A stretch of DNA of 32,000 nt from NCBI RefSeq assembly GCF_002214165.1, contig NZ_CP019964.1, positions 690,001-722,000 of the forward strand, given 5' to 3'. Source of the stretch: Candidatus Saccharimonadota bacterium. Lineage in GTDB: Archaea > Micrarchaeota > Micrarchaeia > Micrarchaeales > Micrarchaeaceae. Positions 1 through 13,933 of this stretch are shown piece by piece. Numbering within the stretch: the stretch's first letter is position 1; the number at the start of each line of letters is the position of its first letter. The notes beneath the pieces were generated by a model, which was not told the origin of the DNA, made no database searches, and worked only from the letters and a program-made list of their open reading frames with translations. A program made the translations under genes and the position numbers.

Positions 1-2
1 TT

Positions 3-71
3 GCGATGGGATTGTCAAGAGGATTAAATTCCGGAATAGAGGGCGCTGCGTCGTTCTGGTCAGGAATATGA
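3..71 (+). CDS. Possible 3' end of an upstream gene cut by the window edge (reads ..AMGLSRGLNSGIEGAASFWSGI*); the frame choice is uncertain
   Basis: An open frame runs from the window edge to TGA at 69-71, just before the GAGGT Shine-Dalgarno of the next gene. Another frame stays open to TGA at 83-85 (ATGA overlap with the 82 start), so the real frame cannot be decided. The Gly/Ser-rich tail resembles the C-termini of the downstream membrane paralogs. Confidence 0.25.
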   Translation, partial: AMGLSRGLNSGIEGAASFWSGI

Positions 72-81
72 GGTTTAAAAA

Positions 82-1506
82 ATGATAGATACAATGCTTG
101 CGATAACGTCCTTTTCCAATACAAGGACAAACCTTATACCGCTTATAGCCCTGGCTATAGGCCTGGACGCATCGTTTGTGAGCATTTGGTACATATTGGG
201 CAGCCTGTTGAACAACAACTCGCTCAAGCAATCCGCAATAAACGAGATTTATCAGCTTTTTGGAAACATAATTATAGTAATATTGATAGTATTCCTTCTG
301 CTCGCGTTCAGCAGCATATTCTACAACTCGCTGCAGGGAACAAAGATGATGAACAGCACCACTATATACAGCATGTGCCAGAACATCAACAGCTCTTCGA
401 GCCTTTCAATACTAAATCCCAGCGATTCTGGCAGCGGCAGCTCCCTGCTTTATAGCGGCAAGTCGGGAAGTTTCCCTGGCTTATGCGAGATGGTCAAGAA
501 CCCGACGACGACAACTGAAAAGATAGACTACCCGGTTGCTACTTCAGCTGTGATACTTGCAAATTTGACAAACCAGACTTTTACAAACCTTAACTATCTG
601 TTCGGTGTCGAGGCTTACATTGGTTTCTTAAGCAAGCTTACACCCACTGATGCAATATGTACAGGTGAAATAGCTCCCCCTGACATAATACCGATTTCAT
701 GCGTGGTTCCATTTTCAAGCCTTCCTATACTGCTGTTCATAAGATCCCAATATACCCCCTTGTCAGGTTACAGCGCAATTTATTCAGGGCTGGCAACTTT
801 AGGGGGCTTGATTACTACTGCCATGGAGTCATTCACCGCCCAACTGCTTATAATAGTCTCATTCATTTACGTATGGCCAATACTTCTTTTCTTAGGGCTC
901 GCATTGAGGTCTGTATTCTTTACTAGAAGGATAGGGGGATTGTTTATAGCGCTAGCCGTTGCATTCATATTATTTTACCCTTCTGTAATGGCCCTTGAGT
1001 ACCTTAGCCTCAACCGTGTGGTTGCTCCGACTGATGTGCTTACAGTAAACAGTACAGTAGTAGGAAGCAATGTCATAGCGCCCGTATACAATTACACCGA
1101 TACCTCTTCAAACAAGTTGGGTAGCTTAGACTTCTTTGTTGAACCCAGCATAAAGAGCGTTGCGCAGTCAACATCCTGCTGGGCGGGGACAGGTTCGGGA
1201 TTGATATTGACAGAGTCTGGGATGATTCTTGAAACCGACTCTGTTTCAAACCTCGTAGATTTATATAAAGTTTTTGACGGTGGATTCGATGGGGATGTTG
1301 GGGCATACTCGTTAGGGCTCGCGACATGCAATGAACAAGGTGCAATAAGCACCCTTTTTGCTTCATTTGATATATATGGAATTATGGGCATAACTGCATA
1401 CCTGCTACCGATATTTAACATAATAATAGTTATTTCCGGAGTAGTTGGACTATCTGGAATGCTCGGAGGGGATACAAATTTGGCTGGATTGAGTAGATTG
1501 TTATGA
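82..1506 (+). CDS. Polytopic membrane protein, paralog 1 of a 4-member family (474 aa), with a large sequon- and Cys-containing extracytoplasmic loop; function unknown
   Basis: Long ORF with SD-like GAGGT at 70-74. It has many hydrophobic segments and Ser/Thr/Asn-rich loops with N-x-S/T sequons. Family motif RSVFFTRRIGGLFIALAVAFILFYP lies at nt 907-981. The stop overlaps the next start (ATGA at 1503-1506). Confidence 0.85.
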   Translation: MIDTMLAITSFSNTRTNLIPLIALAIGLDASFVSIWYILGSLLNNNSLKQSAINEIYQLFGNIIIVILIVFLLLAFSSIFYNSLQGTKMMNSTTIYSMCQNINSSSSLSILNPSDSGSGSSLLYSGKSGSFPGLCEMVKNPTTTTEKIDYPVATSAVILANLTNQTFTNLNYLFGVEAYIGFLSKLTPTDAICTGEIAPPDIIPISCVVPFSSLPILLFIRSQYTPLSGYSAIYSGLATLGGLITTAMESFTAQLLIIVSFIYVWPILLFLGLALRSVFFTRRIGGLFIALAVAFILFYPSVMALEYLSLNRVVAPTDVLTVNSTVVGSNVIAPVYNYTDTSSNKLGSLDFFVEPSIKSVAQSTSCWAGTGSGLILTESGMILETDSVSNLVDLYKVFDGGFDGDVGAYSLGLATCNEQGAISTLFASFDIYGIMGITAYLLPIFNIIIVISGVVGLSGMLGGDTNLAGLSRLL

Positions 1507-2615
1507 CAAGATTAAGATTTGCGGCGGTTGGCATTTCGCTGTTCTTAGTGTTATTCATGGAGCTTGGCACCGGATTTGCACCTGCAGCCACAACCAGTTA
1601 TCTGCCAGCCAACCTATGCGGGAGCATGTACAATGTGGCAGGGAATCCAACAGGGTTTGTAAAATATGAGAGCTTGACTGGCTTGTTGGCGATATCGCTC
1701 ATACTTTTGACCATAATGCTTCTCATCACTGGAGTACTGTGGGCATTTGGCGGTCTGCTGGAAATGCCAAAGCTGAAGGAGTCAGCAAGAAGCGAGATTG
1801 GTGAGGTACTACTCACAGGATTGATAGTTGTTATAATTTTAGGCTCGTTTTCGCTGACCAATTTTTCGGCAGGAGATGCCCTTCCCCTATCGAATGGGCT
1901 TTTCAGCTCGCGCATCTATTATGATGACTGCAATGTGATATTTACTGGGGTACAGAAAGGTATATCTGAAGATATAGGGCTTTTGGCTTATGACGATGTG
2001 GTTAAACTTATATCTTCTTTAACCTTGACAATCGAGCCTGGATATTTTGGCTATTCGTTCTCTCCATACGCCGGAATGGGTTATGGCAGCAATGTAATAG
2101 GAGTTACAATGAGCATAGTTGGAGGCGTAGTAATGCTTTCATTCGCAGGCATCTTAGTATTGAACTATGTGTTCATCATAATGCCAATATTCCTTTTCAT
2201 TGGCATTGTGCTTAGGACAATCCCCTGGACCAGACCGGCAGGAGGGGCTTTCATAGGCATGTTCATAGGGTTTTTCATACTGTTCCCCTTGCTTCTGCAT
2301 TTTATGATAGTGGGAAGCATACAGACAATCAACCTGGCCACGGTTTCATCAAGCACACCTACCAGCCTTCCTGGATTAAGCGGACTCACCAATGTGCTGA
2401 ATATAATGGGAGACATAGAGGGATATGTTAGTGATTTTTCAGGAGGAATTGCCGCAGTGAATTCGGTTATAACTGATATCATAGGGCCTTTACTTTATAT
2501 AATATTGTCGCTTTTAATAACACTTATAATTGCATTTGACTTTACAGATACTATGGGAGACCTTTTAGGCTCACCCAGCTTAAGTTCATCAGGAGGGTTG
2601 AAAAAGTTAGTGTAG
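1503..2615 (+). CDS. Polytopic membrane protein, paralog 2 (370 aa)
   Basis: Start overlaps the previous stop. N-terminal signal-anchor-like segment. Family motif RTIPWTRPAGGAFIGMFIGFFILFP at nt 2214-2288. Second shared motif ..SARSEIGEVLLTGLIVVI.. follows an early TM helix. Confidence 0.85.
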   Translation: MTRLRFAAVGISLFLVLFMELGTGFAPAATTSYLPANLCGSMYNVAGNPTGFVKYESLTGLLAISLILLTIMLLITGVLWAFGGLLEMPKLKESARSEIGEVLLTGLIVVIILGSFSLTNFSAGDALPLSNGLFSSRIYYDDCNVIFTGVQKGISEDIGLLAYDDVVKLISSLTLTIEPGYFGYSFSPYAGMGYGSNVIGVTMSIVGGVVMLSFAGILVLNYVFIIMPIFLFIGIVLRTIPWTRPAGGAFIGMFIGFFILFPLLLHFMIVGSIQTINLATVSSSTPTSLPGLSGLTNVLNIMGDIEGYVSDFSGGIAAVNSVITDIIGPLLYIILSLLITLIIAFDFTDTMGDLLGSPSLSSSGGLKKLV

Positions 2616-2649
2616 TAAATCAATAATGGATGTTTAAGAAGGTAAAAAA

Positions 2650-3828
2650 ATGTTTGGAAAAAACAAAAACCATGGGAAGTTTGCGATCGCGCTTCTGCTA
2701 GCATTAGCTTTAATTGGATCTGCATACTTGTTTGCCGTGCAGACTCCTATCGCATTTGCTGGCCCTGCCGGATATGGCGCTTCACCAAACAACGCCAACC
2801 TTGTTGCTGCCAATTCGGGAGTTGAAGGTTATGGTCTTGCCAGCAGGCTAAATGTACAGGAACTCTCATTGGTAAGTCCTACAGGATTCGCATCAAAATG
2901 GCTTGCTCTTGCCTTCATATTTGCAATATCTATTATAATGGTGGCAGTGTTCGTATATGAGATAAGCAACATATCCAACAGCACAAATGGGAAGATGTGG
3001 GCAAGGACACAGATCTATGAAGCGGTCCTTTCAATAATAATGCTGCTTATATTCATAGGCATAGGCTCAATACTTATGGTAAATCCAAAGGCGGCTTATA
3101 ATTCGGTAGGGTTGCTGCCTTTTCAGTGCAACACTGCGAGCATAAACACGATTTACAATTTGTCGGCATGTGATATGGGGACATTTAACTCAAATGTCGA
3201 TTCGCTTATCTATATAATATATGGATTTACATTCTCTTCTGGCCTTGAGCCTGGTTTTTCGGTAAGCGTGACTCCTTTGGGGATTGAGGGCCAGCAGAAA
3301 CTTTGGTCGGTATCTGGCGGAATTTCCAGCTTCATGCCCTCCTCTTCACTAGACATATATAGCTATGTTATAGTGGCACTGATAACACTATTGATACTCA
3401 ATTATGTTCAGATGATACTTTTGACAGGGTCCCTATTTTTCCTTGCGGTTTTTGTGAGCTTGGGGCTTGTATTGAGAGCATTGGGCTTTTCCAGGAGTTT
3501 TGGAGGATCATTAATAGCTCTTGGAGTGGGGCTGGGCATAATCTACCCTCTTCTCGTATCAATTTCATATGGATTCGTGGTTGCATCGCAGTCTGCCATA
3601 GTACTGCCATCCTTCAGCGCAATTTCCAGCTCCGACCCTCTTGCAATCGTAAGCAACTTCATAAGTTACATGTTCGGAGGGTACCTTGACTCAATAGGAT
3701 ATGTTTTGGTAGGACTTACATTCCTTCCATTCCTAAACTTCATAATACTTGATTCGTTTATGATAGACTTCTCTTCTGCGATAGGAGAGAGGATAGGTTT
3801 TATGTCATTGATGACTGGCTTGGTGTGA
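2650..3828 (+). CDS. Polytopic membrane protein, paralog 3 (392 aa)
   Basis: SD-like GAAGGT at 2638-2643. Signal-peptide-like N-terminus (..LIGSAYLFAVQTPIAFA/GPAG). Family motif RALGFSRSFGGSLIALGVGLGIIYP at nt 3475-3549. Confidence 0.85.
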   Translation: MFGKNKNHGKFAIALLLALALIGSAYLFAVQTPIAFAGPAGYGASPNNANLVAANSGVEGYGLASRLNVQELSLVSPTGFASKWLALAFIFAISIIMVAVFVYEISNISNSTNGKMWARTQIYEAVLSIIMLLIFIGIGSILMVNPKAAYNSVGLLPFQCNTASINTIYNLSACDMGTFNSNVDSLIYIIYGFTFSSGLEPGFSVSVTPLGIEGQQKLWSVSGGISSFMPSSSLDIYSYVIVALITLLILNYVQMILLTGSLFFLAVFVSLGLVLRALGFSRSFGGSLIALGVGLGIIYPLLVSISYGFVVASQSAIVLPSFSAISSSDPLAIVSNFISYMFGGYLDSIGYVLVGLTFLPFLNFIILDSFMIDFSSAIGERIGFMSLMTGLV

Positions 3829-3834
3829 TATTAT

Positions 3835-5019
3835 ATGAATAGGTTTTTTAAATTTACAATTCCGGCGCTTTTCTTGATTTTAGTCGTACTTCTGAGCTAT
3901 GGCTTAATCTATAACCAATTTAATAACACGCTGAAGTCAAATTACGGTTATGAAATATTGAATTTTGGAGGGGCTGGAGGGAGCTCTTCGAGCCAATGTG
4001 GCCTTGTCCCTTCTTCAATATCGAAAACGATATCAAGCAATGAACCTTGGTACTGTCCTATAAATGAGGAGATTTTCAATGACTGGCAGACTTATCTTCC
4101 TATAGCTGTGATAGTGCTTTTGATTGGGCTCTTTGTTGATATAATAATATTCGGTATAGGCGTAGCGCTCAAGAATGACAGAGTCAGGAACATTGGAGTT
4201 GGGGAGCTGTATGAAACCTTTGCCAGCGCTATAATAATCTTTTTGTTCCTTTACATATGTGCGGTTACCTTTGGACTTATTCCTGGCGTGTATGTAGGCA
4301 ACATAAACCCATATGCAACCGCTTTCCACCTGATGCTTACAACATCCAATTCTGTTGAGAAACTTTACACTGGCCTTTTCCATACTTACGCCATGGACAA
4401 GTTTATTACTTCAATTGAAATAAAATTTTATGGAAGCAACCTTGGGGATTTGGATTTGAATACTTATGGGCAATATATATACGGAGTAGCCTATACCCCT
4501 CTTGAGATCGGTTTCATAGAACCTGCAAGCTTCATTATGTCAATGCTCATAGATGGGACTGCAATTTTATACTCGGAGTATTATCTTCTTGTGTTCTTTT
4601 CTGTCAGCGCCATACCTGTGTTCATAATACCTGGAGTAATATTCAGGATAATACCTCCTACTAGGGGTCTTGGGGGAATGATGATTGCCCTTGGAATAGC
4701 ATTTTACTTGGTATTCCCAACCCTGTTTGCTGCAGTCTATTATTTCTCTTCAAGTTCATTTTTGACACAGATAAGTGTAGCTACACTGCAGGCGGAGCAG
4801 ATAAATTCGCAGGGAATCGCCTCTGCCAAGGGCTTCTCAAGCACAAGCCCTGCTGCTGAAAATCTAAGCAGCATACAATCAAGCATGAGTTCTTTCTGGC
4901 TACTGGTACTGTTCTACCCCGCACTGATAATTGCGGTATCCTACGCATTTGTGCAGACGATAGCGCAGTTCATAAGCGGATCGACATATTCAAGCCGTAG
5001 GATAAGAGGTTTCGTGTGA
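3835..5019 (+). CDS. Polytopic membrane protein, paralog 4 (394 aa)
   Basis: GGTG at 3822-3825 upstream of the ATG. N-terminal signal anchor. Family motif RIIPPTRGLGGMMIALGIAFYLVFP at nt 4645-4719. Confidence 0.85.
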   Translation: MNRFFKFTIPALFLILVVLLSYGLIYNQFNNTLKSNYGYEILNFGGAGGSSSSQCGLVPSSISKTISSNEPWYCPINEEIFNDWQTYLPIAVIVLLIGLFVDIIIFGIGVALKNDRVRNIGVGELYETFASAIIIFLFLYICAVTFGLIPGVYVGNINPYATAFHLMLTTSNSVEKLYTGLFHTYAMDKFITSIEIKFYGSNLGDLDLNTYGQYIYGVAYTPLEIGFIEPASFIMSMLIDGTAILYSEYYLLVFFSVSAIPVFIIPGVIFRIIPPTRGLGGMMIALGIAFYLVFPTLFAAVYYFSSSSFLTQISVATLQAEQINSQGIASAKGFSSTSPAAENLSSIQSSMSSFWLLVLFYPALIIAVSYAFVQTIAQFISGSTYSSRRIRGFV

Positions 5020-5072
5020 TTGCATTGATGGATGCAATTGGCATTTATTTGTAAAATAAGCATTAGTTTTTT
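5019..5072 (+). terminator. Possible transcription stop after paralog 4: a hairpin followed by a T-run
   Basis: Inverted repeat ATTGCAT (5019-5025) / ATGCAAT (5032-5038) with a 6-nt loop, followed by T-rich sequence including TTTTTT at 5067-5072. It sits in the only sizeable intergenic gap (about 100 nt) inside the cluster. Confidence 0.3.
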
Positions 5073-5082
5073 AACTTTTCAA

Positions 5083-5102
5083 TTTAAAATTATAATAAAT
5101 AA
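5083..5102 (+). promoter_or_regulatory. TATA-like AT box, a candidate internal promoter for the second half of the cluster
   Basis: TTTAAAATTATAATAAATAA lies 18-50 nt upstream of the candidate starts (TTG 5120, ATG 5132). Position only; there is no transcript evidence. Confidence 0.25.
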
Positions 5103-5119
5103 TGAATTAGGTAATTTAC

Positions 5120-5953
5120 TTGAACAATAATATGTTATTTGGCATTGAATACGCTATTTCGATATTGTTCTTGGTTGCTGCAATAGTTATGCCATTGAGC
5201 ATTGGCGGCTATCTAGTCAAGATAATATTGTTTTTAATCGCCATGATCTTTGATGTCATAGCGTTCACCTCCCGTTATTATGCTTACTTATTTATACCGT
5301 TTATAAAAGGAAGAGGGAAGAGAGTGGTATTAAGCAATGAGGATGCATATTATCTCTCCGCATCTGCAGATTCTATATTGAAGAAGGTAGGTGACAAATT
5401 CATAGCTACTGTATATATCTTATTGCCCGTTTATACTTCTTCCACTGAAATGAATGACGACCAAAAGCTTGAGTTCACCCAGAAAGTTAGCAGGATGGTA
5501 GGGATTACACGCGACCCGGCAAGATTCACTACGGAGGTACTGATAATGAATAAGGATGACTACCTAAGAGAGCTTAAAGATGCGATTTCACAAGCGGACA
5601 ATGAAGTTGCACAGCTTAACCTTAACAAAAACCCGGACAAAAAAAGGATGGAGCATTATAAGGGTAAATCCGTTATGCTCAGAAACCTACTAAATGATAT
5701 GGGAAAGGTTACATCTTATGAAGAAATTTCTTATGTTACAGTATCGGCATACGGCTACAAAGAGTACGAAGCCGTAGCAAATGCACAGCAGAAAGCAAGG
5801 GAGCTTATATCAGGTATAAGCTCTGTTTTCGGTGTCCCTGTAAGCATAATCACAGGAAACGAGCTACTAAAGTTTGTTGAACCGGAATACCTTATACCAT
5901 ATGTTACGGTTACTACGCAGATGAACAGTGATTTGGAAAGCAAAGTGATATGA
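5120..5953 (+). CDS. Bitopic membrane protein, twin A (277 aa): two N-terminal TM helices plus a cytoplasmic alpha/beta and coiled-coil domain
   Basis: ORF starts at TTG 5120 (alternative ATG 5132). The hydrophobic N-terminus has two helices; the rest is charged and soluble. Its stop overlaps the next start (ATGA at 5950-5953). It is a paralog of the next gene. Confidence 0.75.
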   Translation: MNNNMLFGIEYAISILFLVAAIVMPLSIGGYLVKIILFLIAMIFDVIAFTSRYYAYLFIPFIKGRGKRVVLSNEDAYYLSASADSILKKVGDKFIATVYILLPVYTSSTEMNDDQKLEFTQKVSRMVGITRDPARFTTEVLIMNKDDYLRELKDAISQADNEVAQLNLNKNPDKKRMEHYKGKSVMLRNLLNDMGKVTSYEEISYVTVSAYGYKEYEAVANAQQKARELISGISSVFGVPVSIITGNELLKFVEPEYLIPYVTVTTQMNSDLESKVI

Positions 5954-6783
5954 TGGATGAAACTACGATGATTTATCTTGCACTTACGCTTGTGGTGCTT
6001 CTCCTTGCATTTGGGACAATTGGGAGCATTGCCAAGGGTATATATTATGACATAGCAATACTGCTTATCATTATAACCGCAGGCTTGATAGTGATAATCA
6101 GCCAAGTGGATTATGTTATGTTCACAATGCTTACCTCATTGTTGGGCACTACGATAAAACCTGCAAATAACTATATGATAAATAAAAAGCAGGATTCTAT
6201 AGTAAAAAATGTGAATAACCTTTATTATGCAACAGGATATGTAACTGCAAACCTGTTCCCTTACGTATTCAAGAATGAAAATCCTCCAGAAGATGAGGAG
6301 GATAGGATGAGCCAAGCGCCTGAGTTATGGGAAAATATAGTAAGGAGTCTTGGATTTCCATTCAAATTCCATGTTTTTTCAATAGGCCTTAATGTACAGG
6401 CTTCCAGGGACGAGCTTGAAGGGAAAAGGTCTTACCAAGAGTTCCAACTATCAAGGGCTTTGCAGGGAAATGCAAATGAGACAGTAATAACAAGCCTGCA
6501 GAGGCAGATAAGGATTCTGCAATCCAAGATAGATATGATATCTTCCGGAGAGAAACCTATAGCTACTATCATGTATATAGAGACGACTGCCGTGGGTATT
6601 ACCGATCAGGAAGCTCTTGATAAGCTTTCATCCCAAGTAACAGCCATACAGGTTGCGTTTAGCTCGTTTGATGTTGAACTCAGGAGGATAGTCGGGAGAG
6701 AATTATATGAAATATTCAAGTTCAACTTTGCACTCCCTCTTACAGTTAAAGATGCTTCAAGGCTGTTTGACCAGCAGGGTTGA
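5950..6783 (+). CDS. Bitopic membrane protein, twin B (277 aa), paralog of 5120..5953
   Basis: Same length and architecture as twin A. Alignable blocks: DSILKKVGDKFIATVYI vs DSIVKNVNNLYYATGYV, EISYVTVSAYG vs ATIMYIETTAVG, and ITGNELLKF vs IVGRELYEIFKF. Confidence 0.75.
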   Translation: MMDETTMIYLALTLVVLLLAFGTIGSIAKGIYYDIAILLIIITAGLIVIISQVDYVMFTMLTSLLGTTIKPANNYMINKKQDSIVKNVNNLYYATGYVTANLFPYVFKNENPPEDEEDRMSQAPELWENIVRSLGFPFKFHVFSIGLNVQASRDELEGKRSYQEFQLSRALQGNANETVITSLQRQIRILQSKIDMISSGEKPIATIMYIETTAVGITDQEALDKLSSQVTAIQVAFSSFDVELRRIVGRELYEIFKFNFALPLTVKDASRLFDQQG

Positions 6784-6798
6784 TTAGAAGATGATATT

Positions 6799-8316
6799 AT
6801 GTCTATTGTAAAGATGCAACACGTGATGAGCAATGAGGTGTCTAAGAGGTCATTTTTGTCAAGGCCTCCAGAGCCGCCGGCAAATATACTGCTTAATGAT
6901 CCTATGAATTCAATTTATATAGGCAATACCAAGATATTCAAGATCCCGTTCGCTTGGAATTTCGACAATGTCACCAACCCCCATATAGCAGTAGTGGGAA
7001 TAACAGGTGCAGGAAAGAGCTATTTTGTAAAGACCTTCCTGATAAGGGCAAACTATATATGGGATACGAATGCTGTGATAATAGACTGGGCTTCGGAGTA
7101 CAAGGCATGGGTACAGCAGAGCGGTGGCACAATACTTTCATTGGGGAAGGGGGACTATATCAATATCATGGACCTTGCAGGTATGAAGCCATTGGATAGG
7201 GTCAAGCAGATAATGGGCGCATTTGAGATACTTACGGATATCGCGTCTTATCCTGAACAGCGCAGGCTGACTGAAGAGGCTTTGGAGCAGGCTTACGCCA
7301 ATCTGGGCTTCAACTTGGCGGAAAGGCCGCCTGAAGGCAAGGATGCGCCGACGCTTAAGGATGGGATAGCCCTGCTTGAAGAGCAGCTTCAATCGGGAGG
7401 ATACCAGTACCCGGCAGAACTTGAAAATGCAATATATAGGCTTAGGCAGTTTGCGAGGCCAGGGGAGGACTTCTTCTCAAGGAAGAGCACTTTGGACATA
7501 GAAAAGATGGCTAATTCTGGATTGGTCGACATAGATCTTTCAGGATTGTCTGATGATACTTTTAGGGCATTGGCAGCATTGTTCATCTTGCAGACATTGA
7601 AAGAGAAAATGAGGTTTGAAGGTTTTGCCGAAACAAAAGGGATAAAGACCTTCGTGGTGCTTGATGAAGCTTGGAAGGTGGCCAGCGATGACAGAAGCGA
7701 TGCAATCACGATAGTCAGAGAGGGAAGGAAATACCAGTTCGGGCTCATAGTGGCATCCCAAAACCCCACGGATATTAATGAGGCGATATACTCAAACGTG
7801 GGCACTAACTTCATACTTAGGATAAAATTTGAAAGGTTCCTTGATTACATACAGGGCTCTTTGAACTTCTCGCCTTATATCAGAAGCGAGATAAGCAATT
7901 TCGGAGTAGGTCAAGCCGCTGTGGACATGTCATTCACAACATCGATGAGGTTCCCAAACATATTCGTTCTGGACAGGATAAAGGGTGAAGAGCCATTATA
8001 CATATACACAATAAACTTGACAGATGTGCTGACACAGGCAGAGGTTTCGGCCAACCTTCTCCCAAGAGATTACCAGTTTGAGGAAGATGAGCTCAAGAAC
8101 AAGATGATAAACTATAACGTCAGCGGGGACATAATAAACCAGCTGTTTAAGAAGCTGGACAGCCAGGGGAGGACCATAAACATGCTTGATTTCGTGAGAA
8201 CCCTTTACTCTTACCATCTTAGGGTGGCGGATATAATTGCGTTGCTGAAAAGCATGAGCATAGAGGACCTTCTCATAACAAGGATAATCTCCTCTTCAGG
8301 TGTAAGAAATGAGTGA
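6799..8316 (+). CDS. P-loop ATPase of the FtsK-HerA superfamily, VirB4/TrbE/CedB-like (505 aa)
   Basis: Walker A GITGAGKS at nt 6997-7020. Walker B VVLDEAW at nt 7654 onward. REGRKYQFGLIVASQNPTDI block. IIDWASEY and INIMDL blocks resemble the conjugative VirB4/TraC ATPase pattern (xIDpxGEY .. iNPl). No TM segment. Confidence 0.85.
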   Translation: MSIVKMQHVMSNEVSKRSFLSRPPEPPANILLNDPMNSIYIGNTKIFKIPFAWNFDNVTNPHIAVVGITGAGKSYFVKTFLIRANYIWDTNAVIIDWASEYKAWVQQSGGTILSLGKGDYINIMDLAGMKPLDRVKQIMGAFEILTDIASYPEQRRLTEEALEQAYANLGFNLAERPPEGKDAPTLKDGIALLEEQLQSGGYQYPAELENAIYRLRQFARPGEDFFSRKSTLDIEKMANSGLVDIDLSGLSDDTFRALAALFILQTLKEKMRFEGFAETKGIKTFVVLDEAWKVASDDRSDAITIVREGRKYQFGLIVASQNPTDINEAIYSNVGTNFILRIKFERFLDYIQGSLNFSPYIRSEISNFGVGQAAVDMSFTTSMRFPNIFVLDRIKGEEPLYIYTINLTDVLTQAEVSANLLPRDYQFEEDELKNKMINYNVSGDIINQLFKKLDSQGRTINMLDFVRTLYSYHLRVADIIALLKSMSIEDLLITRIISSSGVRNE

Positions 8317-8638
8317 ACAGAACTCTTATACGATAAGCAAGGCAGACCTCAGGAAACTGCTGATAAACTACAAGATTAGCGAGGACACTATCGCCCGGTT
8401 TTTTGGGGAGCTGGAAAAGTCCCATAGACATATAAATGCACTCGCGTTCGTATCGATATTGGAGAAGTCTGGAGTAGACTTAGATAATATTGTAAACATA
8501 TTGCGCCGCCTTGGTATGGATGACGTCAGGATAAATAATATACTGAATGATGAAGACGAACAGAAGCTTGCAGCAGAGCCAGGAAGGATATTCAATGCCT
8601 CAGTTGAATTCAGCGCAGAGGATGAAGTTAATGAGTAA
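8309..8638 (+). CDS. Small acidic protein (109 aa), paralogous to the C-terminal ~75 aa of the upstream ATPase
   Basis: Its start overlaps the ATPase stop (ATGAGTGA). LRKLLINYKISEDTIARFFGELEKSHRHINALAFVSIL..NIVNILRRLGMDD aligns with LKNKMINYNVSGDIINQLFKKLDSQGRTINMLDFVRTL..DIIALLKSMSIED of the ATPase tail. Confidence 0.7.
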   Translation: MSEQNSYTISKADLRKLLINYKISEDTIARFFGELEKSHRHINALAFVSILEKSGVDLDNIVNILRRLGMDDVRINNILNDEDEQKLAAEPGRIFNASVEFSAEDEVNE

Positions 8639-9032
8639 AAGCAGCATATCTAACAACAGGTGCATAATATGCGGCCAGCAGAAGCCAGGGTTGCATGTGA
8701 AAGATGATTTTGTACTGGATTCAATAAGATGGATCAAAAGGAACATAACCAAAAATGAAAAGGGGTACAAACTGGTAGTGTGTAAGGAGGATTACAAAAA
8801 ATACCTTAAAGAAAGGAACAAATATATAAGAAGGCAGATATTTTATATAGCGATAGGGATAGTGTTTGCGGCATTGCTGATAATAATGTCGGGTGGTTCG
8901 ATAGGTGCAATACTCTTTGGGCTTGCTATAATATTGCTGCTTTATCTGCTTTCGCTCCTTTCATATATTCCAGCAGTAGATCTTCCTGAAAAATTTGTAT
9001 CAAAGGATTTAAAAGGGAAATATGATAAATGA
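8631..9032 (+). CDS. Small membrane protein with an N-terminal CxxC..H..C segment and two C-terminal TM helices (about 133 aa)
   Basis: The track ORF 8547..9032 overlaps the previous gene for 90 nt. ATG 8631 (ATGAGTAA overlap with the stop at 8636-8638) or ATG 8622 is the likelier start. CIICGQQKPGLH...VVCKED is followed by a hydrophobic IFYIAIGIVFAALLIIMSGGSIGAILFGLAIILLLYLL segment. Confidence 0.6.
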   Translation: MSKSSISNNRCIICGQQKPGLHVKDDFVLDSIRWIKRNITKNEKGYKLVVCKEDYKKYLKERNKYIRRQIFYIAIGIVFAALLIIMSGGSIGAILFGLAIILLLYLLSLLSYIPAVDLPEKFVSKDLKGKYDK

Positions 9033-9058
9033 GTATTGTTGTGTTATAAGGTGTATGA

Positions 9059-9790
9059 ATGCCTGAATCTATGGGGATAATAAAACCTAAAGTAAAAGAA
9101 TTCTACTTAAATAGCAGGTTAGTTGGAAGTTTCGACGATATGCTCGGCAGGTTTTCTGATGTAAAGACATTTATATCGAAAAAGCAGCAGGACAATTCAT
9201 TAGTTTTAGTCTCTATAGAGAGCAGGGATATGCAGAAGAATCCTTTCCTGTTCATAGTTCTTGTATTCAAGCCTGATTCTATAACTGTGCAGTATTCTAT
9301 ACCGCTGGACAGCAGCGAAAAGATGAGAAAGATTTATGTTATAAGGGCTGTGCTTGAGCTGCTTGCACTCGTTACAGACCTATATATTGTAGACCAGAGT
9401 GCACTTTATACTTATATCAATTCTTCTATAGATGATATATTGGGCTCATTAAGTCAAAGCTACAGTTCGTTGTTCAATAGCTATGATTCGTTGTTCAGCG
9501 AATTCAGGGAAATACGCAGGCTTAACCTTGAGCTTCAAAATTCGAATAAAACGCTTACAGCAAAAGCGGTCCAGATGGAAGACGAGAATAAAAGGCTTAA
9601 TGAGCAGCTGGATCAGCTGCATAAGTATTCCGACCAGGCTTTGATGGTTATGGTCGAGGATTGGATAGACGAGCATAACAACACAATAGACTTGGATGCG
9701 TTTTCCAATACGCACCACATACCAATATCAAGAGTCGAGCAGATACTTAACAAGATGGTCACGGAAGGTTACATATCCATACAGGGATGA
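9059..9790 (+). CDS. Cytoplasmic protein (243 aa): N-terminal alpha/beta region, central coiled coil, C-terminal winged-helix-like module
   Basis: SD AGGTG at 9046-9050. Heptad-like segment LNLELQNSNKTLTAKAVQMEDENKRLNEQLDQL. The C-terminus HHIPISRVEQILNKMVTEGYISIQG looks like the recognition helix and wing of a wHTH. Confidence 0.7.
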   Translation: MPESMGIIKPKVKEFYLNSRLVGSFDDMLGRFSDVKTFISKKQQDNSLVLVSIESRDMQKNPFLFIVLVFKPDSITVQYSIPLDSSEKMRKIYVIRAVLELLALVTDLYIVDQSALYTYINSSIDDILGSLSQSYSSLFNSYDSLFSEFREIRRLNLELQNSNKTLTAKAVQMEDENKRLNEQLDQLHKYSDQALMVMVEDWIDEHNNTIDLDAFSNTHHIPISRVEQILNKMVTEGYISIQG

Positions 9791-9930
9791 ATATGATATA
9801 CAATGTCAGGGTAAATCAAAAGCTTAAATATGTAAGAGTCTACCGAATAGTTAAAAGGCTCTCGAAAGGAGAAAACGGCTTGACAAAACTTTTCGTAAAA
9901 CTGTTTGCAAAAAAGGGGAATACGGAGTGA
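9787..9930 (+). CDS. Unlisted micro-ORF (47 aa, very basic): MNMIYNVRVNQKLKYVRVYRIVKRLSKGENGLTKLFVKLFAKKGNTE
   Basis: ATG 9787 overlaps the upstream stop (ATGA at 9787-9790). Its stop at 9928-9930 lies 7 nt before the next start and inside that gene's SD-like GGAGTGA. It fills an otherwise empty gap in a tightly packed operon. It is below the size cutoff of the ORF track. Confidence 0.35.
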   Translation: MNMIYNVRVNQKLKYVRVYRIVKRLSKGENGLTKLFVKLFAKKGNTE

Positions 9931-9937
9931 TGGCTGA

Positions 9938-12328
9938 ATGAAAAAGAAGATAGCTATTTTAATTTTAGTCGTGGTCATGGCAATAATCTTTGCAGGGATA
10001 TTTGCTTATCTCTCCAGTCTCTTCGCACAGCTAAAGCCTCCTGCGCCTCCAGTATTGAAATATATAGCGCCTAGTGAAAATGTGTACCTTACAGGGCAAA
10101 ATCTGCTGTTTTACAATTATAGCTACGACATCATGCCTTACACTCTTTTGGACTATGCAGCATCAAATGTAACCGGGCTGTACATCAATGAATCGATATT
10201 GCAGAAATCCCCTCCTTCCTACAACGAGATATACATATTGAATTATACTAATGACTGCTTGTCATGCTCCAACCCGACCGCGGAAGTAAGCTATATTACC
10301 AATGACCTTATAAAATACAGAATCATAAGCAATTACAGCCAAGTTCAGGTTGTGTCCGCTTCACAGGTTGCTTCTTTACCAAATAACTCCATACTAATAA
10401 TAATGAACGGGAGGCTCCCAATATCAATGATGGGCAACTATAGCTTGTCGGACAACAATCCGCAATTGGCAAGGCAATACAATGAAAGCAATACCTCTGT
10501 AATCGGATATGCATTGATGAAAGGCATTTCAATAATCTATATAGGGAATGATTTTTCAAGCTTAGTTGGGCCTGGAGATATCGTGGTCCCGGATAGCAGG
10601 ATGCCCTCTTATCTTTCAACTTCCGGTGTTTCGCCGCTGCCAAAAGAAAATGGATTCTATTTTACAAACAGGACTTTTGTATTTAATAATGGAAGAACGT
10701 ATGGGCCTGTATCATATACCTATGTTTATAACGGTACTATAATTGCATTCTCCAATTACCTCAGTTCATGGCCTTCATTGAACGATTCCGCTTACGATAT
10801 AGCTAAGTCAATATCCCAATTGTACTGGATCCCCACTTATATATCTGGAACAGCTACGGTAAATGTTGGATTGAACAATGTGGTGTCAGGATCTGAAGGA
10901 GTATTTTTGAACAGCAGCACCTTGGGCTATTCATACCCCCTAATAAAAAAGCTGAATTCCGGGATAATAAGAATAGTCGCCTATACCAATAGCACCTATG
11001 GATTTGGGAATGGATCAATCTATAACTATCTTACTTATAAACCGGATTACAAGGTATACGGAAAATTGGGCATACAGAATAACATCGTAGCGGGATCCAC
11101 AGATCCTGTTGATATGGACATTTTCACCAATTCATCAACAAATGTAAATATAGTCCCCCATCTGGCAATATACTATACCAACATGACCAAATTTGAGGAT
11201 ATATACCTTACATCTTTTGAAGCCTCGGGCAACTTTTCCTTGATACAGTACAAGACATTTACACTACCTCCAGGACAGTATATAGCGATTCTAAGGAACG
11301 ACCTCGATTTTGACTATGCCTCTGCATTATTCACGGTCCCTCCCATTTCGGTAACCCTGTCTCCGTATTTCACAAAAAATGTGTTCACCTTCACTGTATA
11401 TTCACAGGGTAAGCCAATCTCTGGAATTCCATACTCAATAAACGTCGATGGCAAATATACACAGAATGGAACAGTGGAGAACGGTGTAATAAATTATACC
11501 TTGCCTAAGACTGCACCAAAGCTTACAACTAAATCCACGTTTAACCTAAATATGCTTTCTACGGATTTTGTAAACACTGCAACACCGCCAACATTCCATA
11601 TAAACTCTGAATACATAGAAGCCGGAATTGTATTCCTTGTCGCTTTCATAGTCATAGTATTTGTGCATCCGGCACCAAGAGACGAATTTTATATTGATGT
11701 GTCAAATCTGCCAGTAGCCAAAAAACAGGACATACGTTTAAAGGACATAGATCTGATTGGAGCATTTGACAAGCTTAATACTTATTACCATTGGAGGTAT
11801 ATGCCTTTGACAGTGCATGAGTTCAGGACCGCTGTATCAAATTACATCCGCTCCAACAATATACCTGTGAACCTTACTCTGAACAACATCAATACGATAC
11901 TTACACAGATGGTAGAGAAGAACGAATTGGTTTCTGTAAGAGATCTTTATGCGCCAAAATCATGGATCACATTGAGCAAGCATGACATTGCATATCTGGC
12001 CATATTCAAGGAGCTTAGGATGTTCATGATATCGCATGCGATAACCTTTACAGACCTGGATAGCAACGACAAGGCAGACATGGTAATAGCAATGAAGGAC
12101 CAGAAGGCGAATATAATAATTTATTCGAAGACATCAAAATTCAAGGAGGTATCTATAACTCCAGGATTAAAGACCTTTATAGTATTCTTGAGCGAGGAGG
12201 AGCTGAATAAGTTCAAGGAAACTGTTTACAGTGTGTCCTCTTATGATATGGATCTTTTCAGGATTTACCTATCTTCAGGGTTGGTAAAATTGGTGAGCTT
12301 GGACAACCTAAATGACCTGCTCTCCTGA
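9938..12328 (+). CDS. Large bitopic surface protein (796 aa): signal anchor, ~525-aa sequon-rich ectodomain, TM helix, ~220-aa cytoplasmic tail with a winged-helix-like module
   Basis: N-terminal hydrophobic helix at aa 5-30. I count 20 N-x-S/T sequons by hand between aa 60 and 521. Second TM EAGIVFLVAFIVIVFV at about nt 11612-11668. The cytoplasmic tail contains NNIPVNLTLNNINTILTQMVEKNELVSV. Confidence 0.8.
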   Translation: MKKKIAILILVVVMAIIFAGIFAYLSSLFAQLKPPAPPVLKYIAPSENVYLTGQNLLFYNYSYDIMPYTLLDYAASNVTGLYINESILQKSPPSYNEIYILNYTNDCLSCSNPTAEVSYITNDLIKYRIISNYSQVQVVSASQVASLPNNSILIIMNGRLPISMMGNYSLSDNNPQLARQYNESNTSVIGYALMKGISIIYIGNDFSSLVGPGDIVVPDSRMPSYLSTSGVSPLPKENGFYFTNRTFVFNNGRTYGPVSYTYVYNGTIIAFSNYLSSWPSLNDSAYDIAKSISQLYWIPTYISGTATVNVGLNNVVSGSEGVFLNSSTLGYSYPLIKKLNSGIIRIVAYTNSTYGFGNGSIYNYLTYKPDYKVYGKLGIQNNIVAGSTDPVDMDIFTNSSTNVNIVPHLAIYYTNMTKFEDIYLTSFEASGNFSLIQYKTFTLPPGQYIAILRNDLDFDYASALFTVPPISVTLSPYFTKNVFTFTVYSQGKPISGIPYSINVDGKYTQNGTVENGVINYTLPKTAPKLTTKSTFNLNMLSTDFVNTATPPTFHINSEYIEAGIVFLVAFIVIVFVHPAPRDEFYIDVSNLPVAKKQDIRLKDIDLIGAFDKLNTYYHWRYMPLTVHEFRTAVSNYIRSNNIPVNLTLNNINTILTQMVEKNELVSVRDLYAPKSWITLSKHDIAYLAIFKELRMFMISHAITFTDLDSNDKADMVIAMKDQKANIIIYSKTSKFKEVSITPGLKTFIVFLSEEELNKFKETVYSVSSYDMDLFRIYLSSGLVKLVSLDNLNDLLS

Positions 12329-13933
12329 TTCGCCTGAATCGGTCTCCTCTATGTCTTTTTTCTTTATGTAATGAGATTCTACAAGGGTTGACAGCTTTTC
12401 CTTTATCATGCCTCTGTCCATGTCAGTGATGAATGCCAAATCCGAAGACAGGTGGTCAACATATTTGATTATTGATTTATACTTGCTCATCTCAATCTTG
12501 TCCCTCTCTTTGTTCTTCAGGTAATGATGCATCTCCCTTGCACAGTCCATCAATGCAAATTTTATCTCATTGACTATAGATTGGTCCTGCTGTATGGATT
12601 CCTTGCCGACCCCTGAATAGGGTATATAAATTGAGGACATGTTGACCATTATGCTTACAGGCTGCTTTTCCAGGTCTATGTCATACCTCTTCCATGATAC
12701 TTTCTTTACCGCTTCTGTAATCGCACAGCTTCCCGCGTCAAATAGCAATGGAACTTTATTCGCAAACCTCATTATATTTGATGTATAATCGTTGTCTTCT
12801 GTTTTCTTCCCTGCATTTCCGCCTATCGCTATAGCCGACTCTATTATAAATGGTATCCCTCCATAGAACACCTTTGGCTTCCTCTCTGTCACTGAGATGT
12901 ATTCTGGATTTAGTATGTTAAGGACTGTCGTTTTGATTTGGGATTTTCCCAGTATGCTTAATGATGAGGCATCTGGAGCTATCCAGTCTATTTTCTTGAA
13001 TGCGTTTATAAGCATCTCTGCATCATCCCAGTTTATTTCAGAGGGGGGCTTGTCAAAATCAATATTGCAAACTTTTCTTAGTTCTTCGATTTTCTTGGGG
13101 CTTACACGAGTAAATGAGTTCTGAAGAAAAGTCGAAATCTTTTTCTCTTGTGATACCTGTGAGAATTCTATTATGTCATTTATGGACAGCCCTAATGGAT
13201 GGGGCTTTACTTCCTTTGGCTTTTTAGGTATTGCATTTATTGAACGTGTAAATATGTATTTTTCGGATTCGGGATCGATGAATGCTATCTGGCAGTGTGG
13301 ATTTACAAGCGCCGTCCTTTTCAGGTACTCGTAAACACCTCTGTCACCTCTTTCATATTTTATCTCTCCAAAAACCCCCTCAACTTTAAGCCCTGTGCCA
13401 CTATGATTTATGTCACTCATATTGGAAACTACGGGGGTGTTGTCAATGGTATTGATTGATAAATCACATGCATAAGATTCGTTTAATGTTGTGGACTCTA
13501 TATGTATAGGCTTGCCTGTTGTCATGCTAGAGAACAATGTGCACCCTGCGGCTCCTATACCCTGCTGGCCTCTCTGCTGCTTGTAAGAATTGAATTTAGT
13601 GCCAGCAAGAATGGTGGCAAGCGCTTTTCCAATGTATTTCTTTGGTATCCCCGGGCCATTGTCTTCTATGCTGATCCAATACTTGTTTTCACCTGCATCT
13701 TTTATAGAAACTGTTATCTCTGGAAGTATGCCTGCCTCTTCACATGCATCCAGTGAATTTGTGACATATTCGTGGACTATCGTGACCATAGAATGGGCTA
13801 ACCCGGAATAGCCCAGCATCTGCTTGTTCTTCTTGAAGAATTCTGAAATTGAGTGCTCCTTGAATTTGTTGAATATTGAATCCGCACTCCCTACTGTTTC
13901 ATTGGCATTATTAATTGGAGGCATTGCTATCAA
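12308..13933 (-). CDS. top6B: DNA topoisomerase VI subunit B
   Basis: GHKL/Bergerat ATPase motifs: EYVTNSLDA (N box), EDNGPGIP (G1), GQQGIGAAG (G2). The length and N-terminal SISEFFKKNKQMLGY are typical of Top6B. Confidence 0.95.
   Translation of the reverse strand: MIAMPPINNANETVGSADSIFNKFKEHSISEFFKKNKQMLGYSGLAHSMVTIVHEYVTNSLDACEEAGILPEITVSIKDAGENKYWISIEDNGPGIPKKYIGKALATILAGTKFNSYKQQRGQQGIGAAGCTLFSSMTTGKPIHIESTTLNESYACDLSINTIDNTPVVSNMSDINHSGTGLKVEGVFGEIKYERGDRGVYEYLKRTALVNPHCQIAFIDPESEKYIFTRSINAIPKKPKEVKPHPLGLSINDIIEFSQVSQEKKISTFLQNSFTRVSPKKIEELRKVCNIDFDKPPSEINWDDAEMLINAFKKIDWIAPDASSLSILGKSQIKTTVLNILNPEYISVTERKPKVFYGGIPFIIESAIAIGGNAGKKTEDNDYTSNIMRFANKVPLLFDAGSCAITEAVKKVSWKRYDIDLEKQPVSIMVNMSSIYIPYSGVGKESIQQDQSIVNEIKFALMDCAREMHHYLKNKERDKIEMSKYKSIIKYVDHLSSDLAFITDMDRGMIKEKLSTLVESHYIKKKDIEETDSGESGEQVI

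Follow-up and report, generated by a model that had tools for sequence, protein, structure and literature searches.

A candidate type IV secretion-derived pilus machine in a conserved chromosomal cluster of Micrarchaeota

A sixteen-gene cluster among chromosomal core genes

We analysed a 32,000-nucleotide stretch of the chromosome of 'Candidatus Mancarchaeum acidiphilum' (NZ_CP019964.1, forward-strand positions 690,001 to 722,000; hereafter the window), a DPANN Micrarchaeon and an ectosymbiont of Cuniculiplasma (Mia14; PMC5498576). The left part of the window, up to position 12328, is taken up by a dense gene cluster that an earlier reading of the letters alone (the preliminary description) had proposed to be an envelope machine with the logic of a type IV secretion system (T4SS) of the conjugative kind or of the archaeal Ced and Ted systems. 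A predicted pilin of the TrbC/VirB2 family and the conserved gene order strengthen that proposal, with translocation itself remaining something that we infer, and we think it quite likely that the cluster encodes a T4SS-derived machine. The same description had reckoned with a possibly wall-less organism, like the cultured Thermoplasmatales, as the source of the DNA; as the organism is a DPANN Micrarchaeon, this premise falls.

Between the left window edge and 12328 every open reading frame of the cluster reads on the + strand, as previously stated, and the cluster runs a further 3.7 kb beyond that edge on the source contig (L001; window coordinates equal L001 coordinates minus 9919). Because the upstream genes are found on L001, and because core genes bound the array on both sides, we place the whole cluster at ~16 kb and 16 genes, of which the window carries ~12 kb. 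In order, these genes encode a predicted pilin (Pil), a polytopic protein (P243), six polytopic membrane paralogs (M1-M6), two hairpin proteins (T1 and T2), the motor ATPase, and five further proteins referred to here as S8, Cxx, CCwH, micro and Surf. Stop and start signals overlap as ATGA at 1503, 5950 and 9787, as ATGAGTGA at 8309 and as ATGAGTAA at 8631, exactly where the preliminary description had put them. Within the window the sole gap of ~100 nt lies at 5020-5119, where the M and motor modules meet, the remaining gaps measuring 6-34 nt.

This intergenic gap (5020..5119) is a candidate internal terminator/promoter. A hairpin, a T-run and a TATA-like box had been ascribed to it, and the gap, a local 8-bp stem-loop, the ensuing U-rich run and an A/T-rich stretch are indeed present, but over its full length the region does not outdo shuffled sequences in folding (z = -0.18) and the terminator/promoter reading is therefore not established. 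The spacing is itself conserved: among 60 loci the distance between M6 and T1 has a median of 58 nt and is never 10 nt or less.

Relatives of the ATPase occur in at least 394 species-representative genomes, and the best 80 of these form the sample to which the synteny and ortholog counts refer. The ATPase orthologs are 64-88% identical in all 80, and all of these genomes appear to be Micrarchaeota, a few of them labelled otherwise; the cultured A_DKE and ARM-1 are included. The genes are conserved together in every one of the loci examined. The order ATP-S8-Cxx is found in 78/80 loci, Cxx-CCwH-micro-Surf in 66/80, and the full ordered string M1-M2-M3-M4-M5-M6-T1-T2-ATP-S8-Cxx in 49/80, with each M paralog having its own ortholog across loci; ARM-1 (L071) has the part of the cluster from the ATPase to Surf. 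Tight gene coupling is conserved within M1-M6, T1-T2, ATP-S8-Cxx and CCwH-micro-Surf, and gaps of ~50 nt recur between P243 and M1, between M6 and T1 and between Cxx and CCwH. Rearranged genomes break exactly at these gaps, the M and motor modules splitting between M6 and T1, and in some of them Pil sits immediately before T1-T2-ATPase. At the downstream end, Surf abuts top6B in 60 of the 71 loci that have Surf, and top6B and a KH protein recur as chromosomal neighbours across the phylum. The ATPase is more strongly conserved than Top6B (1.59 against 1.23 bits per residue). The cluster is thus a vertically inherited chromosomal locus.

Some contigs and single proteins that represent the cluster are labelled Marsarchaeota, Methanothrix, Baltobacteraceae or Acidoferrales (L006, L009, L010, L017, L067, P0021, P0201 and P0204). 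Where compared, the ATPase on such contigs is 66-75% identical to that of Mancarchaeum, and P0201 and P0204 are T2 homologs with 50-51% identity; the likeliest explanation for these copies is mis-binning or mislabelling of Micrarchaeota sequence. Minimal relatives were found at a greater distance. One archaeal contig encodes one M protein, one T protein, the ATPase, CCwH and a small basic protein (L115 996-5195), and another encodes T-ATPase-CCwH (L112 9196-12198), in both cases among archaeal housekeeping genes (PheRS-beta, the beta subunit of phenylalanyl-tRNA synthetase, and ribosomal protein genes). The existence of minimal forms in distant archaea therefore points to a core of M, T, ATPase and CCwH, and in the Micrarchaeia M was expanded to six and T to two.

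The flanks of the Mancarchaeum cluster are made up of core genes. To the left, on the other strand, lie genes for a carbamoyltransferase, Sec61beta and arginyl-tRNA synthetase; to the right, the stop of Surf overlaps the end of the convergent top6B gene (12308-13933, other strand; Pfam Topo-VIb), and further housekeeping genes follow. The GC content of the cluster is that of its surroundings, in agreement with the preliminary description, which had also named an integrase just past the left edge as grounds for reclassifying the cluster as an integrated element. The 10 kb to the left show neither an integrase nor a relaxase, a coupling protein or an att-like context, and hold core genes instead; nor is a relaxase or VirD4-type coupling ATPase encoded by the cluster itself, by the 10 kb upstream of it or by the 20 kb downstream. 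A scan of IMG/VR returned no relative of the cluster.

These observations bear on the idea that the locus is an integrated conjugative element or a plasmid remnant. Such an origin would account for the pairing of a VirB4-like ATPase with a VirB2-like pilin, which is the logic of conjugation; archaeal conjugative plasmids carry VirB4 homologs, and other islands in Mia14 have been called likely conjugative elements (PMC5498576). It is nevertheless very improbable, in view of a gene order and a chromosomal neighbourhood (top6B and the KH protein) that are the same in 60/71 loci, the housekeeping flanks, the matching GC content, an ATPase better conserved than Top6B and the lack of relatives in IMG/VR. 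The earlier view of a chromosomal system of the organism itself, as opposed to a plasmid or virus, is borne out by the synteny of the 80 loci together with these flanks.

The pilin family and the motor ATPase

The gene that heads the cluster, Pil (L001 6209-6613, + strand, 134 amino acids), lies outside the window. The relaxase, coupling ATPase and integrase reported absent by the preliminary description are absent, but the absence of a pilin holds only inside the window. The Pil family was sampled from 28 metagenome loci (L084-L111). Its members have a signal peptide and a mature part of ~95 residues containing two hydrophobic helices and the loop H-x-MPG-x-SKG-x2-QGYGMGM. The Pfam TrbC/VirB2 family (PF04956) matches over its full model in 10/24 Pil members, two of which reach the gathering score of 27.9 bits (L097:5940-6341, 31.1 bits, E 2.8e-7; L084:9914-10303, 28.0 bits). 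The Mancarchaeum protein is assigned as a pilin because it belongs to the same family as the orthologs that match TrbC. A profile search of the PDB with Pil returned nothing significant, and hhalign comparison with the CagC proteins of Gram-positive bacteria gave 0.9%. By the TrbC matches within its family, a predicted pilin of the VirB2/TrbC family heads the cluster.

Without exception, Pil genes immediately precede either P243-M1 or T1-T2-ATPase, and they are often arrayed, with two to five genes upstream of P243-M1 (L092 89-10303; L100 3030-11122; L089 9686-12342). Larger proteins of 400-1150 residues contain or end in a Pil domain, their other parts giving weak Ig-like Pfam matches only, and one protein of 632 residues consists of four tandem Pil domains (L100 3748-5646). 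A pair of cysteines is present in all 27 of the 27 members with the loop motif, one ~40 residues before the loop and the other 0-9 residues from the C-terminus. TrbC/VirB2 pilins are cyclised head-to-tail. In Pil, a disulphide between the paired cysteines may close the hairpin instead.

The motor ATPase (6799..8316, + strand, 505 residues) surely belongs to the FtsK-HerA superfamily (Pfam DUF87, 1.6e-17; AAA_10; TraG P-loop), and both its Walker A (G67-S74) and Walker B (V287-W292) motifs are invariant. The protein starts ~40 residues before Walker A, with neither the N-terminal domain of VirB4 nor the HerA (HAS) barrel, and ends in a helical tail of ~90 residues. Its best NCBIfam matches are CedB, CedD, VirB4_plasma and CD1110, at 1e-18 to 2e-16, with HerA at 4.5e-14. 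The VirB4 structure in PDB entry 4ag5 aligns over the entire ATPase core, and tblastn against plasmids returns TraC/VirB4 across residues 56-487. Automatic annotation names the orthologs variously as 'VirB4 component' or 'HerA-like ATPase'. The VirB4-like FtsK-HerA enzyme of the preliminary description therefore stands as regards its superfamily and its core alignments with VirB4 and TraC, although it scores far below all curated cut-offs (CedB 67.3 bits against 700). We regard it as a predicted short enzyme of the VirB4/CedB/TraC type. ATPases of the VirB4 family are the signature proteins of T4SSs.

An alternative is that the ATPase is part of a helicase module of HerA type, serving DNA repair or defence against phages, or is a virus-derived packaging ATPase with accessory genes. 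This is suggested by the Pfam DUF87 match ('HerA central domain'), by the HerA proteins that top the list of PDB sequence matches and by the name 'HerA-like ATPase' given to some orthologs. With HerA-NurA and HerA defence systems the cluster shares the superfamily and DUF87, but it differs from them in the missing HAS barrel, replaced by a start ~40 residues before Walker A, and in its context: the ATPase has no NurA, Sir2 or other nuclease-effector neighbour, and 11 of its 14 predicted co-transcribed partners are membrane proteins. HerA matches cover the C-terminal half only, whereas VirB4/TraC matches span the core, and the cluster is not found in the viral contigs of IMG/VR. A standard HerA paired with NurA, which the preliminary description had named among the outcomes that would refute its view, is not seen at the locus, and we find a HerA-type or viral module hardly tenable. 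The mobile-element, viral and HerA-repair readings were accordingly rejected on synteny, gene context, domain architecture and the IMG/VR scan.

The ATPase tail recurs in the next gene. S8 (8309..8638, + strand, 109 residues) is a free-standing version of the C-terminal tail domain (hhalign 98.5%; HMMER 1e-10 to 1e-15), in accord with the duplicated tail module described before; its Pfam and NCBIfam matches are weak and sub-threshold only.

Directly upstream of the ATPase lie T1 (5120..5953; the public gene call begins at ATG 5132) and T2 (5950..6783), both on the + strand and each of 277 residues. Each begins with a membrane hairpin of two helices, followed by a basic stretch and then by a soluble alpha/beta domain, which in T1 comprises ~210 residues. 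The two had been described as paralogous bitopic proteins: they are paralogs by profile comparison (hhalign 97.5%, E 7e-12, 227 columns; HMMER 1e-9 to 1e-12), with no BLASTP similarity between them, but they are not bitopic, each having a two-helix hairpin. The soluble domain is most likely cytoplasmic, because sequons are few or absent and there is no cysteine. Scans of 32 T2 and 30 T1 sequences yielded no consistent Pfam family per member, and PDB profile searches with T1 and T2 gave nothing significant.

An AlphaFold2 model of T2 (predicted local distance difference test score, pLDDT, 77.6) has no significant match in the PDB, with TrwK/VirB4 at rank 9, and its two best matches in BFVD are both VirB4-like phage proteins (E ~1e-3, probability 1.0): a 'Component of type IV transporter system' and gp155 of Bacillus phage G. 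The latter protein (L118 3195-4844), annotated as VirB-like, joins an N-terminal region of ~340 residues to a VirB4-type ATPase in its C-terminal half (4ag5, 5e-13). Homologs of gp155 are also present on Gram-positive and haloarchaeal plasmids. Direct comparison of T2 with TrsD gave a weak hhalign match (E 8e-4, 126 columns, probability 24%), and T1 and T2 scored below 1% (T2 0.5%) against a profile built from five VirB4 N-terminal domains.

The six M paralogs and the downstream genes

Four of the M proteins are encoded wholly within the window on the + strand: M3 (82..1506, 474 residues), M4 (1503..2615, 370 residues), M5 (2650..3828, 392 residues) and M6 (3835..5019, 394 residues), the last being the best conserved of the six. 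M1 (L001 7479-8825, 448 residues) and M2 (L001 8833-9990, 385 residues) precede them on the same strand, the 3' end of M2 forming window positions 1..71, and P243 (L001 6689-7420, + strand, 243 residues), likewise polytopic, lies between Pil and M1. The preliminary description had recognised four paralogous polytopic proteins, whose paralogy is evident from BLASTP (1e-4 to 1e-7); the count, however, rises to six conserved members. All of M1-M6 are mutual paralogs when profiles of their orthologs from the 80 loci are compared (hhalign 97-99.5%, against ~0-3% for control pairs of unrelated membrane proteins), and HMMER cross-hits agree.

All six have in common the loop motif LR-x5-TR-x2-GG, which in M3 is followed by ...YP; R238 and P262 are invariant in the family and R244 near-invariant (M4 numbering). 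By the positive-inside rule the motif loop is cytoplasmic, between transmembrane (TM) segments 4 and 5, and the large loops, which bear sequons in M3, face outward. With ~6 TM segments, as in M4, and a large outer loop, the M proteins resemble VirB6. Some M orthologs reach 519-1237 residues owing to Ig-like (PF13927) or PKD insertions, the M6 orthologs P0125 and P0126 among them; such insertions fit outward loops used for recognition.

This resemblance of topology is not accompanied by detectable homology. A per-member scan of 42 M sequences gave no consistent Pfam family, a PDB profile search gave no significant match, and hhalign comparisons with TrsF, the neighbour in pGO1-type systems, and with PrgI proteins gave nothing. 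An AlphaFold2 model of M6 (12 sequences) has a pLDDT of 59 and long helices of 37-50 residues at low confidence; in its PDB list TrwI/VirB6 has the highest template modelling score (0.26/0.34) at a non-significant E = 2.6. The suggestion that the M proteins are VirB6-, CedA- or TedA-like is therefore not demonstrated by Pfam, PDB profile, hhalign or M6 fold searches. The N-terminal hairpin of M2 gave 63% against the pilin in hhalign, unsupported by HMMER with a larger pilin model. More widely, the M, T, P243 and Surf families have nothing significant in Pfam, NCBIfam or PDB, and the earlier remark that the membrane proteins match no recognised family holds for M, T and P243.

The remaining four genes, all on the + strand, agree with the sketch given of them in the preliminary description. 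Cxx (8631..9032, 133 residues) has an N-terminal CxxC/Cys segment resembling a zinc ribbon, then a basic linker, and at its C-terminus a pair of helices that anchors it in the membrane. CCwH (9059..9790, 243 residues) has a coiled coil between an N-terminal domain and a C-terminal winged helix, and is retained in the minimal relatives; its winged helix is weakly similar to that of CdvB/ESCRT, with sub-threshold Pfam and NCBIfam matches. The strongly basic micro (9787..9930, 47 residues; 12 K+R, 2 D+E) is conserved in 69/80 loci, and a basic small protein likewise follows CCwH in the minimal system. Surf (9938..12328, 796 residues) consists of a signal/anchor, a sequon-rich ectodomain of ~520 residues, a TM segment at residues 555-582 and a well-conserved cytoplasmic domain of ~215 residues. 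The ectodomain carries 20 N-x-S/T sequons against 9.4 +/- 2.6 expected (0/2000 shuffles), and the cytoplasmic tail carries 1 against 2.2 expected. Cxx and Surf have no Pfam or NCBIfam match, and PDB profile searches with CCwH and Surf gave nothing significant.

Several of these properties could instead indicate a lineage-specific machine for envelope biogenesis, secretion or division with a borrowed HerA/FtsK motor, in which the pilin-like proteins would be anchors and the M proteins would export or insert surface components such as S-layer or glycoproteins. The lack of significant Pfam, NCBIfam or PDB matches for M, T, P243 and Surf, the weak CdvB/ESCRT likeness of the CCwH winged helix, an ATPase that scores do not cleanly separate from HerA, and the universal, housekeeping-like presence of the cluster among the loci examined in the phylum would all suit such a machine. 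Against it, a pilin family that reaches the Pfam TrbC/VirB2 threshold heads the cluster and stays with the motor module in rearranged genomes, T2 finds its two best fold matches in VirB4-like proteins, and the full-length matches of the ATPase are to TraC/VirB4, not FtsK. We consider this explanation unlikely.

Beyond the cluster, the window contains some further genes of note. A TnpB/IS605 OrfB-type gene (29462-30718, + strand; Cas12f1-like TNB, OrfB_IS605, HTH_OrfB_IS605) is the sole mobile-element gene seen in the window, 17 kb from the cluster. The gene at 22786-25548 (- strand) encodes a predicted membrane-anchored double-AAA ATPase of 920 residues, in which a polytopic N-terminal region of ~330 residues precedes two Cdc48/Vps4-type AAA domains (Pfam AAA 1.6e-77, Vps4_C). 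A fusion of the Trm56 tRNA methyltransferase to an HD domain is encoded at 17445-18506 (+ strand), and a 595-residue HMG-CoA-synthase-like protein at 14678-16465 (+ strand), in which a long insert splits the N- and C-terminal Pfam halves.

A proposed conduit and its relation to known systems

On balance we favour the explanation that the cluster encodes a T4SS-derived, vertically inherited and relaxase-less machine that builds a pilus or conduit toward the host cell of the symbiont. Pilins of the TrbC/VirB2 family would be exported through their signal peptide and stored in the membrane. A hexameric short VirB4/CedB-type ATPase would be tethered at the membrane by T1 and T2, whose hairpins would be VirB3-like and whose soluble domains would replace the missing N-terminal part of VirB4 or TrsD, as gene adjacency and fold matches suggest. 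M1-M6 would form a membrane platform or channel in the role of VirB6, CedA or TedA, possibly as a hetero-hexamer matching the ATPase ring. ATP hydrolysis would extract the pilin and drive its polymerisation into a hollow filament, or into a short conduit, that crosses the S-layer toward the host; variant pilins and pilin-anchored Ig-like proteins would give host recognition; and S8, Cxx, CCwH, micro and Surf (through its tail) would act as regulators, substrate adaptors or surface parts.

The product of the machine is probably a VirB2-type pilus or conduit directed at the host. As to what might pass through it, we infer transport, together with its substrate and direction, from the gene content and from the lifestyle of the organisms. 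Because there is no relaxase or coupling protein, and because these are host-dependent organisms with reduced genomes, host contact with uptake or exchange of macromolecules is favoured over plasmid-type export. By analogy with Ced/Ted, and with what has been proposed for Patescibacteria, DNA or RNA would be the first candidates. That the machine translocates host macromolecules is possible, at somewhat less than an even chance.

A T4SS-derived pilus could also serve adhesion only, its filaments and pilin-anchored adhesins attaching the symbiont with nothing translocated. The pilin arrays and the large Ig-like proteins that end in a pilin domain would be well suited to this, as would the predicted glycosylated surface protein in the cluster and the lack of a coupling ATPase or relaxase, and T4SS pili are known to serve attachment. 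We give this view little credence, however: CCwH, micro and the Surf tail keep cytoplasmic winged-helix or basic features like those of nucleic-acid-binding proteins, a membrane platform of six subunits is seemingly more than a pilus base requires, the ATPase is conserved like a housekeeping enzyme, and adhesion in Mia14 is already served by two type IV pilus systems (PMC5498576).

Several results count against a T4SS-derived conduit. The Mancarchaeum Pil protein itself has no TrbC match. The motor falls well short of every curated cut-off, the HerA families score just slightly under the VirB4/CedB ones, HerA proteins lead its PDB sequence matches, over partial stretches (~234-375, in the C-terminal half), and the N-terminal domain of VirB4 is missing. 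The similarity of the T proteins to VirB4 is borderline, the small profile of its N-terminal domain being negative, and the M proteins are not tied to VirB6, TrbL, CedA or TedA by Pfam (42 members), PDB profile or hhalign; the M6 fold search is unreliable because the model is poor. Finally, in the only Micrarchaeon study of this kind by electron cryo-tomography, that of ARM-1, the tubes between the cells were attributed to the host (PMC11329633). The same study describes, in the ARM-1 envelope at the contact tubes, a 21-nm barrel-shaped docking complex of unexplained composition (PMC11329633). One could imagine a symbiont-side conduit in which a pseudo-sixfold ring of M1-M6 is matched 1:1 with a hexameric split VirB4 motor and bears a disulphide-closed VirB2-type pilus that draws in host nucleic acids or cytoplasmic material, and which may be the ARM-1 barrel. 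We regard this elaborate version as rather doubtful, and its link between the cluster and the 21-nm barrel is speculation.

Functionally, the machine would be closest to the Ced/Ted systems and to the chromosomal T4SS of Patescibacteria, being a member of neither. The DNA import systems Ced of Sulfolobales (van Wolferen 2016) and Ted of Thermoproteales (Beltran 2023, PMC9905601) are likewise archaeal, chromosomal and domesticated conjugation machinery, comprising a VirB2-like pilin, one or more polytopic membrane proteins and a VirB4/HerA-like ATPase, without relaxase or coupling protein and with components too divergent for BLAST; the NCBIfam CedB and CedD models are the top matches of the ATPase described here. 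By its score against the CedB cut-off, however, this enzyme is not a CedB ortholog, and no Ced model in NCBIfam matches M, T or the other scanned partners. The single CedA or TedA contrasts with six polytopic paralogs in Micrarchaeota, whose motor is split with two T proteins and accompanied by the additional S8, Cxx, CCwH, micro and Surf, and whose pilin belongs to the TrbC Pfam family and has a signal peptide and a cysteine pair. No HerA, Rad50 or ParA is linked to the Micrarchaeota cluster. Micrarchaeota are moreover obligate ectosymbionts, and the partner cell is likely to be of another species.

The T4SS of Patescibacteria, or candidate phyla radiation (CPR), is also phylum-wide and chromosomal, belongs to ultrasmall host-dependent epibionts, mostly lacks a relaxase, and has VirB4 near VirB2-like pilins that form arrays of several divergent copies (PMC12102498). 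It has been proposed to act in host interaction or macromolecule uptake (PMC12102498; bioRxiv 10.64898/2026.06.21.733656), and PMC12102498 cites the T4SS as being essential for Ca. Southlakia to grow as an epibiont. The CPR machine is a bacterial derivative of MPF-FATA in which VirB6, PrgI/VirB3 and TrsD can be recognised, whereas the M, T and P243 proteins of Micrarchaeota belong to no recognisable family and their ATPase lacks the N-terminal domain. The archaeal system of Micrarchaeota probably arose independently.

Among mobile systems, the MPF-FATA type (Trs of pGO1/pSK41, Prg of pCF10, and haloarchaeal plasmids) has a gene order of pilin-like/CagC, PrgI-type hairpin, TrsD and VirB4 that parallels Pil ... 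T1-T2-ATPase; it too has no outer-membrane core, and T2 is weakly TrsD-like. Those systems differ in being mobile, in having a relaxase, a type IV coupling protein, cell-wall hydrolases and a single VirB6-like protein, and in a VirB4 of 620-880 residues that includes the N-terminal domain. In the R388/VirB inner-membrane complex (PDB 7O3J/7O3V/8RTB), hexameric VirB4 sits, via VirB3, on a platform of VirB6 oligomers at the base of the pilus. The T2 and M6 models list TrwK and TrwI, respectively, among their top-ranked non-significant PDB matches, but the cluster has no equivalents of VirB5, 7, 8, 9, 10 or 11, and six distinct M paralogs stand against the VirB6 homopentamer.

What is new about the cluster is the combination of six fixed M paralogs, a motor without N-terminal domain accompanied by two hairpin proteins, a pilin with paired cysteines, conserved cytoplasmic and surface partners, and a distribution like that of a core operon in a DPANN phylum. 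Neither the genome nor the culture papers on Mia14, ARM-1 and A_DKE refer to it, and in the literature that we searched, which is not an exhaustive set, no paper ties Micrarchaeota to a T4SS or VirB-type system.

The pilin and the motor now tie this cluster to the world of conjugation and T4SSs. By what physical means DPANN archaea take lipids, nucleotides and further building blocks from their hosts has long been a question, and the Micrarchaeota (ARMAN) are among the few DPANN lineages with co-cultures. The cluster is a strong candidate for how Micrarchaeota connect to their hosts, and it offers concrete targets (Pil, the ATPase and M1-M6) in the co-cultures Mia14/Cuniculiplasma, A_DKE/Scheffleriplasma and ARM-1/Metallosphaera. 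If the proposal is correct, the T4SS-type architecture would be an unusual one, with six fixed membrane-subunit paralogs, a split motor and a pilin that is clamped by cysteines instead of being cyclised. The T4SS of Patescibacteria, the ultrasmall bacterial epibionts, would then have an archaeal counterpart, which would suggest that conjugation machinery was recruited convergently for episymbiosis.

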